The notes: a model not told the origin generated them from the letters alone. DNA of 64,000 bases from Candidatus Falkowbacteria bacterium (GCA_003518055.1 DOZJ01000002.1:235097-299096); one strand, 5' to 3'. Shown: positions 62,670-64,000, counted from the first letter of the stretch. Numbers and translations: made by a program.

Positions 62670-64000
62670 ATGACGACCAAAAATGTTAGCACAACAAAAA
62701 ACGAAGCTGATGAGCAAAAAAAAGGACCGTTTGACCAGTTTACGAATCTTTATGAATTATCGAAGACGTTAAAATTTGAGTTGCAGCCGGTACCTGAGAC
62801 ATTAGAATTGCTTGATAATGGTGAGGGAAAGAATTTGATCCAATTAGATAAGGAAATTGACTTGTTATATGAAACAAGCATGAAGCCATTATTTGATAAT
62901 TTGCATGAAAAATTTATAAATGATTCGTTGTCATTGGTGAATATTGACGTCAGAAAGCTCGAGGATTTGAGGGTATTGTTGATTGAAGCCGAGGAATTGA
63001 GAAGGCAGATAAAGGAAGCCAGAAAAAACAAGCAAGACAGTGATTTACTTGAAAAACAATTGAAGGAACTTGAAGGGGAGTATAAAAGTGGAGAGAAGAA
63101 AGGGCGTATTCCAGATTTACAAAAAGACCTTCGAGGTGATATTGTAATGTCCTATAAGACCACTGCTAAAAACTGGACACAAGAATTGAATGGTAAAGAA
63201 ACTGAGTTGCCAAAGAAAAAAGGGAAAAGAAAAATCGAGATAAAAAAAACCGGATCTGAAATTTTGGGAGAAGAAAATGTGCTTGCAATTTTGGCATATT
63301 ATAATCCAGATAAAGTGGATATAATTAAAAAATTCACTGGCTTTTTTACTTATTTCAGCGGGTTTAACCAAAATAGGCAAAATTATTACTCGACAGATGC
63401 TTTGGCTACTAGCGTGGCACACAGAGTAATTAATAAAAACCTGCTAATTTTTTTGGAAAACATAAAAGATTATAAGAAATTTAAAGGACAGTTGCCGAGC
63501 TTGGTTGAGTATGATGATTATTTTAAGTTGAAAAACTTTAATAAATTTTTATCGCAAATTGGAATTGAAGAATACAATGAAAAAATCGGAATGATAAAAT
63601 CAATTGTCAATTTGGAACATAACCAAAAGCAAGTAGATGGAAAATTTCAATTAAAGGGGTTGAAGACATTTGATAAACAAATCGGTTGTAAAACGAAAAA
63701 GCAAAGAGATGGTGGATGCGGTGATGGTGCCCCTAAATTTTTAGAAAAGGTTGGTCTTGGCTTCCAAGTTACCAAAGATAACGATGGTCAATATTTAATC
63801 TGGGAGTGTTTGGGGTATGTTAAGGATACATTAGAAGCTGATTTAGTGAACTTACGTGAGAATTATCAAAAGTTTTTTAGTTCATGGCAAGACTATGATT
63901 TAGATAAGATATTTTTCCGGAAAGAAGCGCTCAACACAATTTCTAGTAGATGGTTTGGAGGAGAAAACTGGTTCATCATCGCCCAAGCATTGACATTGTC
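62670..64000 (+). CDS. cas12a: Cas12a (Cpf1) type V-A CRISPR effector, N-terminal about 443 aa only, truncated by the window end
   Basis: The ORF is open from ATG 62670 to the window edge. It is not in the supplied ORF track because it has no stop. Its N-terminus FTNLYELSKTLKFELQPV matches the Cas12a hallmark FxNxYxLSKTLRFEL. KKFTGFFTYFSGFNQNRQNYYSTDALATSVAHRVINKNLLIFLEN matches the Cas12a WTTYFKGFHENRKNVYSxxDIxTSIxYRIVDDNLPKFLEN block. FNKFLSQIGIEEYNEKIG matches FNNYLNQSGITKFNTIIG. Confidence 0.85.
   Translation, partial: MTTKNVSTTKNEADEQKKGPFDQFTNLYELSKTLKFELQPVPETLELLDNGEGKNLIQLDKEIDLLYETSMKPLFDNLHEKFINDSLSLVNIDVRKLEDLRVLLIEAEELRRQIKEARKNKQDSDLLEKQLKELEGEYKSGEKKGRIPDLQKDLRGDIVMSYKTTAKNWTQELNGKETELPKKKGKRKIEIKKTGSEILGEENVLAILAYYNPDKVDIIKKFTGFFTYFSGFNQNRQNYYSTDALATSVAHRVINKNLLIFLENIKDYKKFKGQLPSLVEYDDYFKLKNFNKFLSQIGIEEYNEKIGMIKSIVNLEHNQKQVDGKFQLKGLKTFDKQIGCKTKKQRDGGCGDGAPKFLEKVGLGFQVTKDNDGQYLIWECLGYVKDTLEADLVNLRENYQKFFSSWQDYDLDKIFFRKEALNTISSRWFGGENWFIIAQALTL

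Follow-up and report, generated by a model that had tools for sequence, protein, structure and literature searches.

The DNA analysed here, hereafter called the window, is a stretch of 64,000 nucleotides (nt) from Candidatus Falkowbacteria bacterium (GCA_003518055.1, DOZJ01000002.1:235097-299096), an organism placed in the Parcubacteria group of Patescibacteria, or candidate phyla radiation (CPR). Its 3' end, positions 62670-64000, is the first third of a cas12a gene that belongs to a complete type V-A CRISPR-Cas locus, in which a promoter, a leader RNA of 136 nt with a terminator, cas12a, cas4, cas1, cas2, a 177-nt AT-rich leader and a CRISPR array follow each other in this order. The effector gene is divided by an in-frame stop codon, which is probably a recent loss-of-function mutation, and is preceded by a structured RNA that may regulate it. 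The parts of the gene and of the locus on which the identification rests are listed below, with coordinates of the window or of two of the contigs that extend it, L001 and L002.

62670..64000, plus strand: cas12a codons 1-443 (WED-I, REC1 and the start of REC2); the gene continues past the window
63015..63683, plus strand: Pfam REC1 match (PF18501), residues 116-338 of the cas12a product
L001 10001-12172: first cas12a open reading frame (ORF), 723 amino acids (aa), called as the WED-I/REC1/REC2 part
L001 12176-14332: second cas12a ORF, 718 aa, with Cpf1 PI-like and RuvC_1 domains (Pfam)
L001 14338-14895: cas4, PF01930 matched nearly full length
L001 14879-15817: cas1, PF01867 matched nearly full length
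L001 15819-16100: cas2, PF09827 matched nearly full length
Between cas2 and the array: CRISPR leader, 177 nt, 70% A+T
L002 16278-17198: CRISPR array, at least 15 repeats, running off the contig end

The frame opens with the ATG at 62670 on the plus strand and meets no stop in its 443 codons before the window ends, which is why it was missing from the ORF track. The preliminary description, drawn up from the sequence alone, had seen in it the start of a Cas12a (Cpf1) gene of a CPR-type genome, and this reading is borne out by the profile and structure searches as well as by the source organism. The 443-codon product matches Pfam REC1 (PF18501) with E=4e-25 and 89.6 bits against a cut-off of 37.4, together with a weak match to REC2, and it covers positions 1-377 of the 1288 positions of the NCBIfam model TIGR04330 (cas_Cpf1) at E=4.4e-36; all 26 distinct PDB sequences that it matches are Cas12a (the best being 8QWD, 1.5e-20). 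The three signature blocks that had been quoted for it could all be located in the translated product: FTNLYELSKTLKFEL at residues 24-38 (nt 62739-62783), TYFSGFNQNRQNYYS at residues 227-241, followed by HRVI at 251 and FLEN at 261, and FNKFLSQIGI at residues 290-299. Such agreement between motifs and profiles lies far above chance, considering the E-values for PF18501 and TIGR04330 and the exclusive matching of Cas12a among PDB sequences. The fragment is also 100% identical to residues 1-443 of the 723-aa protein HCC23017.1 ("hypothetical protein DF272_02450") of Candidatus Falkowbacteria. The identification is ordinary in itself, since type V-A loci of CPR genomes are already known; PbCpf1 and PeCpf1 are said to be the CPR examples described by Zetsche in 2015. 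The Falkowbacteria Cas12a is, in this respect, an uncharacterised member of a well-known family, and its downstream half is already labelled Cpf1 in GenBank.

Three contigs carry the 723-aa protein, namely L001 (Logan SRR6482257), L002 (ENA SRR2177986) and L003 (ENA SRR2177953). The last 11,331 nt of the window are identical to L001, in which window position 62670 corresponds to 10001, and L003 differs from L001 at only 1 of 10,852 positions, which lies outside cas12a. The rest of the effector, cas4-cas1-cas2 and the array had been predicted to lie just downstream, and the identical contigs do contain the PI, RuvC and Nuc parts, the three adaptation genes and the array. In the second ORF, beyond the TAA stop codon that ends the first, RuvC_1 (PF18516) is matched with E=3.6e-68, and alignment with solved Cas12a structures places the catalytic residues at D1018 (RuvC-I, in GIDRGE), E1136 (RuvC-II, in MEDLN) and D1387 (RuvC-III, in DANGA). 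The same ORF keeps the Nuc arginine R1346 (IRN) and the WED histidine H983 (FFHFPI), although the Pfam NUC domain (PF18510) remains below threshold in it despite the alignment of R1346. Taken as a single read-through protein, the two ORFs show the domain order WED-I, REC1, REC2, PI, WED, RuvC, Nuc of FnCas12a, AsCas12a and LbCas12a, with the same catalytic D/E/D, Nuc Arg and WED His, while the gene order cas12a-cas4-cas1-cas2-array and a 36-nt repeat ending in AAUUUCUACU-loop-GUAGAU are those of type V-A systems. Cas12a recognises DNA beside a T-rich protospacer-adjacent motif and uses a single RuvC site to cleave both strands; it cuts its own precursor CRISPR RNA (pre-crRNA) with an RNase in the WED domain and needs no trans-activating crRNA (tracrRNA), and Cas4-Cas1-Cas2 add new spacers. 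A tracrRNA-like anti-repeat was not noticed in the locus, where no search aimed at one was made.

In L002, the array comprises at least 15 copies of the 36-nt repeat GTCTAATATCAATATTCAATTTCTACTTTCGTAGAT, separated by unique spacers of 25-27 nt. The 3' end of the repeat is AAUUUCUACUUUCGUAGAU, the RNA form of which, UCUAC-UUUC-GUAGAU, folds into the canonical 5-bp UCUAC/GUAGA stem; repeats of about this length ending in a Cas12a crRNA stem are what the preliminary description had proposed to look for downstream, having noted none in 62440-64000, a span in which our array search likewise found none. L001 contains a single repeat, at 16278-16313, and a lone repeat after cas2 might be taken for an empty or degenerate array. 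This is ruled out by the repeats of L002, which agrees fully with L001 as far as the end of that repeat and continues with the long array, so that the lone repeat of L001 is an assembly collapse; solitary repeats in such Logan contigs should not be taken as biology. Exact scans of IMG/VR with four of the spacers found no protospacer, and comparison of all spacers with the window and the fetched loci found no self-target, nor any match in 75 kb of host DNA. Across the CRISPR leader and the start of repeat 1 (L002 16152-16291) there extends a large imperfect palindrome with a DNA fold z = -5.0, in which the leader segment TATTGATATTTATTAGAC reproduces, in part and in inverse orientation, the 5' end of the repeat, and within which lies an inner inverted repeat of 19 nt, GCTAATTTAAGCTAAAAAG/CTTTTTGGCTTAAATTAGC. 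This palindrome could be a signal for spacer integration.

Unlike typical cas12a genes, that of Falkowbacteria has an in-frame TAA at codon 724, corresponding to window-equivalent 64839-64841 (L001 12170-12172), about 842 nt past the window end. It is the only stop in the frame, which resumes after it and runs to window-equivalent 67001, leaving halves of 723 and 718 aa. The junction reads TGG TAA AAA ATG at L001 12167-12178, or ENIEGDW-stop-KMEYKYLPNTSRMIPKV in the protein. A single uninterrupted frame of about 1200-1500 aa, as expected of a Cas12a gene, is absent from every assembly examined, for the TAA is present in Logan SRR6482257, ENA SRR2177986, ENA SRR2177953 and GenBank (HCC23017.1/HCC23018.1), where the two pieces are named "hypothetical protein" and "type V CRISPR-associated protein Cpf1". 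Against the cut-off of 300 bits of TIGR04330, the read-through protein (1443 aa, with the stop taken as Gln) scores 597.8 and the second ORF 404.6, whereas the first ORF fails with 187 bits, which explains its label of "hypothetical". Positions 1-605 of the model lie in the first ORF and the remainder in the second, with the PI-like domain following the break. The full-length protein had been expected to contain RuvC and Nuc; the 723-aa ORF has neither, and it is the gene read through its stop that has both, so the expectation stands for the gene and not for the protein as called.

The second ORF is closest, at 44-62% identity, to Cas12a relatives of 1160-1250 aa that are not split. Next to these, the read-through protein is long for a Cas12a, its REC lobe being larger by about 200 residues. 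A first protein search had returned short fragments alone, as a result of word-based candidate selection with a Lys/Glu-rich query; the relatives are not short on that account. In the column of the stop, these relatives have either Gln (P0025, WQKMDYKYLP) or Glu (P0019, WEKLNYKYFP), so that a single substitution separates the TAA from the ancestral codon. The Met that comes two codons later is ancestral too, since the same K-M is found in the unsplit P0025.

How should one understand a stop codon in the middle of an effector that is otherwise so well preserved? The explanation that we consider probable, if not by a wide measure, is that of a recent loss-of-function (nonsense) allele which has become fixed in the sampled population. 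A single base change, from CAA or GAA to TAA, would have created the stop at codon 724, at the junction of the recognition lobe with the nuclease lobe. Standard decoding would then produce the 723-aa fragment with WED-I, REC1 and REC2 and, at best, also a separately initiated fragment of 718 aa with PI, WED, RuvC and Nuc; judging from the sequence, interference would be lost. A nonsense allele would account as well for the "hypothetical" annotation of the N-terminal half. Effector decay is common in the CPR group, because other CPR copies of cas12a are broken independently at other sites. Frameshifts were found in L004 (1380-1660), in L005/L006 (7620-7760, in an A9 run and in two samples), in L007 (4930-5060) and in L084 (~5833-5893), while cas12a of L053 has two in-frame stops, TAA and TAG, at ~5152-5154 and ~5623-5625 (coordinates for L053 and L084 are motif-oriented, those of L053 reading toward cas12a). 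Disrupted copies make up roughly a fifth of the complete cas12a genes examined, most others being intact, and cas4, cas1 and cas2 are still present next to the broken gene wherever the contig reaches far enough. The Falkowbacteria stop adds to this evidence that CPR cas12a is often broken while the adaptation genes persist.

Several facts nevertheless weigh against a plain loss of function. The 4.3-kb gene has no second lesion, and the adaptation genes, the CRISPR leader and the long array are intact, from which it follows that the allele would have to be very young or tolerated. Moreover, the stop lies exactly at the lobe boundary, with the ATG of the second ORF 3 nt after the TAA and a Shine-Dalgarno-like AGGTGAT 9 nt upstream, an arrangement that fits the needs of a two-piece enzyme. 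A search of about 15 billion proteins brought up no uninterrupted allele, which would have made the stop polymorphic; metagenome_contigs and genome_contigs, scanned for the junction with any codon (NNN) in place of the stop, yielded nothing either, a result that is uninformative since the organism is absent there. The preserved features would suit a naturally split Cas12a, in which a REC-lobe subunit (residues 1-723) and a re-initiated NUC-lobe subunit of 718 aa would assemble on the crRNA. The break between REC2 and the PI-like domain, the start signals just mentioned, a second ORF free of further lesions with all its catalytic residues, and the intact remainder of the locus with its long array all argue for this possibility, which we regard as unlikely, though it is the main rival. 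However, the Met and the Shine-Dalgarno-like codons are ancestral or ordinary, no relative is split at the same site, and the other broken relatives are frameshifted elsewhere in a way that resembles decay; in addition, the split is seen in a single lineage (n = 1). Engineering offers only a partial parallel. Some engineered split Cas12a designs use dimerisation domains, and we know of none that relies on spontaneous assembly. As in such designs, the Falkowbacteria protein is divided near its middle into two polypeptides; unlike them, it has just a stop and a nearby ATG instead of inteins or dimerisation domains, and the assembly of its halves is hypothetical. That an engineered split Cas12a can be reconstituted favours the two-subunit interpretation, but the halves of the split-intein dFnCas12a-VPR in question are rejoined by intein trans-splicing (PMC8754635, which also cites the split Cas12a of Kempton et al. 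2020). As an experiment of nature, the nonsense allele offers a way to see whether the REC lobe and the NUC lobe of Cas12a can function as separate polypeptides.

Full-length Cas12a might still be made if the stop were read through, or if UAA served as a sense codon through an alternative code or a suppressor tRNA. Both halves lie in one frame with one codon between them, as this would require, and low-level stop-codon read-through does occur in bacteria; UAA, though, is normally the least leaky stop codon. The known recoding in CPR bacteria is that of UGA, in Gracilibacteria/Absconditabacteria, and to our knowledge reassignment of UAA has not been reported for Parcubacteria. In the present genome, TAA is the commonest stop, terminating half of the called genes (12 of 24) and half of the long ORFs (19 of 38), and a tRNA search of the 64-kb window found none, hence no suppressor. 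We reject UAA recoding on these two grounds, stop-codon usage and the tRNA-free window, and hold production of the whole protein by any such route to be very improbable. An assembly or sequencing artefact in a gene that is really intact is scarcely credible: metagenome assemblies do contain errors, as the collapse of the array to one repeat in L001 illustrates, but the same TAA occurs in three runs, with different assemblers, and in the GenBank third-party annotation record, with flanks that are 99.99-100% identical, and a substitution is not a typical consensus error, unlike a homopolymer indel. A recent nonsense allele is the reading of the divided gene that we retain as the most likely.

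Upstream of cas12a, between its start and the end of a VIT1-family gene at 62439, lie a promoter and the leader RNA mentioned at the outset, arranged as follows:

62457..62484, plus strand: sigma-70-type promoter, TTGACA-16 nt-TATAAT, with 12 of 12 consensus positions
62491..62626, plus strand: structured leader RNA, about 136 nt, from fold energy, a covariance model and a terminator-like site
62491-62508 (5' strand) and 62591-62609 (3' strand), plus strand: helix P1 of the leader RNA
62543-62556, plus strand: hairpin P2
About 62575-62593, plus strand: hairpin P3
62555-62566 (5' arm), 62610-62621 (3' arm) and 62622-62626 (U-tract), plus strand: terminator
62627..62669, plus strand: spacer of 43 nt from the U-tract to the cas12a ATG, read from the sequence

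The site at 62457-62484 is the only plausible promoter for both the leader RNA and cas12a. The 43 nt that separate the hairpin and T5 of the terminator from the cas12a ATG are too short for a separate promoter plus a 5' untranslated region, and the sole promoter-like site there is weak (9/12) and overlaps the ATG. The leader RNA has a minimum free energy of -51 kcal/mol (z = -5.2), and the covariance model, which has 64 hits in the fetched loci, matches the window copy with 49 bits (E = 1.8e-7). When the window copy is aligned with the sequence preceding cas12a in L007, the closest relative, compensatory changes are seen; in that locus the called start of cas12a (1519) falls inside the leader RNA, the real start being probably the ATG at 1621 (MDNEQNQAENIFSEFTNLYELSKTLRFEL). 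A search of the whole window against the 4227 families of Rfam 15 gave no match at gathering score, and at permissive E-values the region 62380-62720 gave chance-level matches alone (E>2). In the literature, a limited search found no description of this leader RNA, which does not prove novelty.

A pattern scan with ATTGGGCGACNACNGNCGTCC retrieved 27 genome contigs and 57 metagenome contigs. The covariance model confirmed 19 of the genome contigs, almost all of them labelled Patescibacteria (Parcubacteria group, Saccharibacteria, Magasanikbacteria, Paceibacter), and a twentieth, L024 from Jacksonbacteria, keeps the terminator half alone. Pattern matches in other phyla were rejected as true members and are attributed to chance, because their flanks are not conserved and the covariance model does not match them; two viral pattern matches, also without a covariance-model match, are due to chance too, and the leader RNA was not found in IMG/VR. 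Of the unique copies, 31 are followed by 2.5 kb or more of sequence, and 28 of these have cas12a downstream on the same strand. The gene lies within 300 nt of the leader RNA in 22 of these 28; in the others, one inserted gene stands between them. Such passenger genes, found in L013, L020, L028, L047, L049, L051, L081, L087 and L092, encode DUF2130, Bro-N, NYN RNase or PemK/MazF-like toxin proteins, and by their position between the leader RNA and cas12a they would share its control. Conversely, cas12a loci free of the leader exist (L005/6, L008/9). In L024, L043 and L046 (Jacksonbacteria RIFCSPLOWO2_02_FULL_44_20), only the last ~30 nt of the element (ATTGGGCGACAACCGTCGTCCTTTTTT) are found directly upstream of cas12a, and since the rest is missing this copy is considered degenerate.

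The 5' end of the RNA is well defined, for in nearly all related elements a -10 box precedes the conserved GUCGC start by 6-7 nt. Its first ~20 nt pair with a segment ending in AUUGGGCGAC to form P1, which has on average 17.6 bp and -24 kcal/mol, with z = -6.7 against shuffles (18 bp and -22.3 kcal/mol in the window copy). P1 shows many compensatory variants, for example AUAGAUAUGC/GCAUAUCUAU, AAUGAUAACGC/GCGUUAUCAUU and AAUAAUGACGC/GCGUCAUUAUU. P2 consists of CGCCCUU-loop-AAGGGGCG and sequesters the 5' arm of the terminator; P3 consists of GCUUAACC-GUUU-GGUAAGC; and the terminator is formed by GGGGCGACGGUU/AACCGUCGUCCC followed by U5. In the alignment of P3 and the terminator, 95.8% of the cells are paired and 9 pairs are changed on both sides, a level that none of 500 shuffles reaches; in slid controls the paired fraction is 28-62%. 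Covariation among homologous elements is thus seen in P1, in P3 and in the terminator. These pair counts exclude the covariance-model alignment A4, which misplaces the 5' strand of P1 in long-form members, that of the window included. Some G-U pairs are strand-specific: one is invariant in the terminator, and in P1 an invariant G faces either U or C. They indicate that the RNA is read from the same strand as cas12a and speak against a mere DNA palindrome.

The helices cannot all coexist in a simple fold: P1 and the terminator cross each other, so they are either mutually exclusive or pseudoknotted. According to predicted folds of 48 elements, the nascent transcript up to the 3' strand of P1 contains P1 in 46 of them and P2 in 37. 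For the full-length RNA, the P1 fold has the lowest predicted energy in 40 of these 48, and the terminator fold in 7, among which is the window copy; where the terminator fold wins, it is predicted to lie 1-5 kcal/mol below the nascent fold containing P1. Across the copies, the gap between the leader RNA and the start of cas12a measures 15-131 nt, and given so short a distance, with little room for another promoter, we infer that read-through of the leader terminator is the simplest way in which cas12a would be transcribed. The element bears the structural marks of terminator-based attenuators and riboswitch-like leaders: conserved helices that covary, an intrinsic terminator and, ahead of a gene, an alternative fold that competes with it. 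On the strength of these modelled folds, it would best be read as a transcription attenuator or riboswitch-like leader, for which a stand-alone small RNA (sRNA) is the alternative; a housekeeping sRNA in particular is disfavoured by the near-obligate linkage to cas12a.

This reading needs to be compared with what is known of regulatory RNAs. As in riboswitches and attenuators, the 5' end of the leader RNA is set at its promoter, the helices covary, some unpaired nucleotides are highly conserved, the 5' arm of the terminator can be sequestered instead, and the gene starts a short distance downstream. In contrast to known riboswitches, it matches none of the Rfam families and has a terminator stem that is unusually conserved in sequence. 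We know of no riboswitch that controls a CRISPR effector. A different precedent is CreR, a mini-CRISPR upstream of Moraxella cas12a in which a 20-nt handle identical to the CRISPR repeat is joined to a pseudo-spacer matching the cas promoter (bioRxiv 10.1101/2023.03.10.532045). Like CreR and the long tracrRNA form acting on cas9, the leader RNA gene has its own promoter and is a candidate regulator of cas genes, located directly upstream of cas12a. Unlike CreR, the CPR leader RNA forms a closed structure of several helices with a terminator at its end, and it has no UCUAC/GUAGA hairpin; its 5' region varies freely yet keeps its pairing to the 3' strand. Lacking a repeat-derived handle, it cannot be considered CreR-like, and we have discarded this assignment. 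A broader proposal, which we advance tentatively and with rather less than even confidence, is that the leader RNA represents an undescribed, Patescibacteria-wide class of cis-regulatory elements whose competing antiterminator and terminator folds would gate the transcription of cas12a and, in some cases, of passenger genes (Bro-N, NYN, DUF2130, MazF-like); it would then be the first such control of a CRISPR effector.

In our judgement, the leader RNA carries most of the novelty that remains in this locus. If regulatory, it would provide a testable handle on the control of CRISPR expression in the streamlined CPR bacteria, as well as a new RNA family for databases.

As to the surroundings of the locus, the VIT1-family gene directly upstream of it encodes a metal transporter of the VIT1/CCC1 family (window 61651-62439, plus strand). 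The G+C content is 34-40% in the last 2 kb of the window versus about 46% elsewhere; this drop, from about 46-50% to 34-40% over the start of cas12a, fits horizontally acquired DNA.

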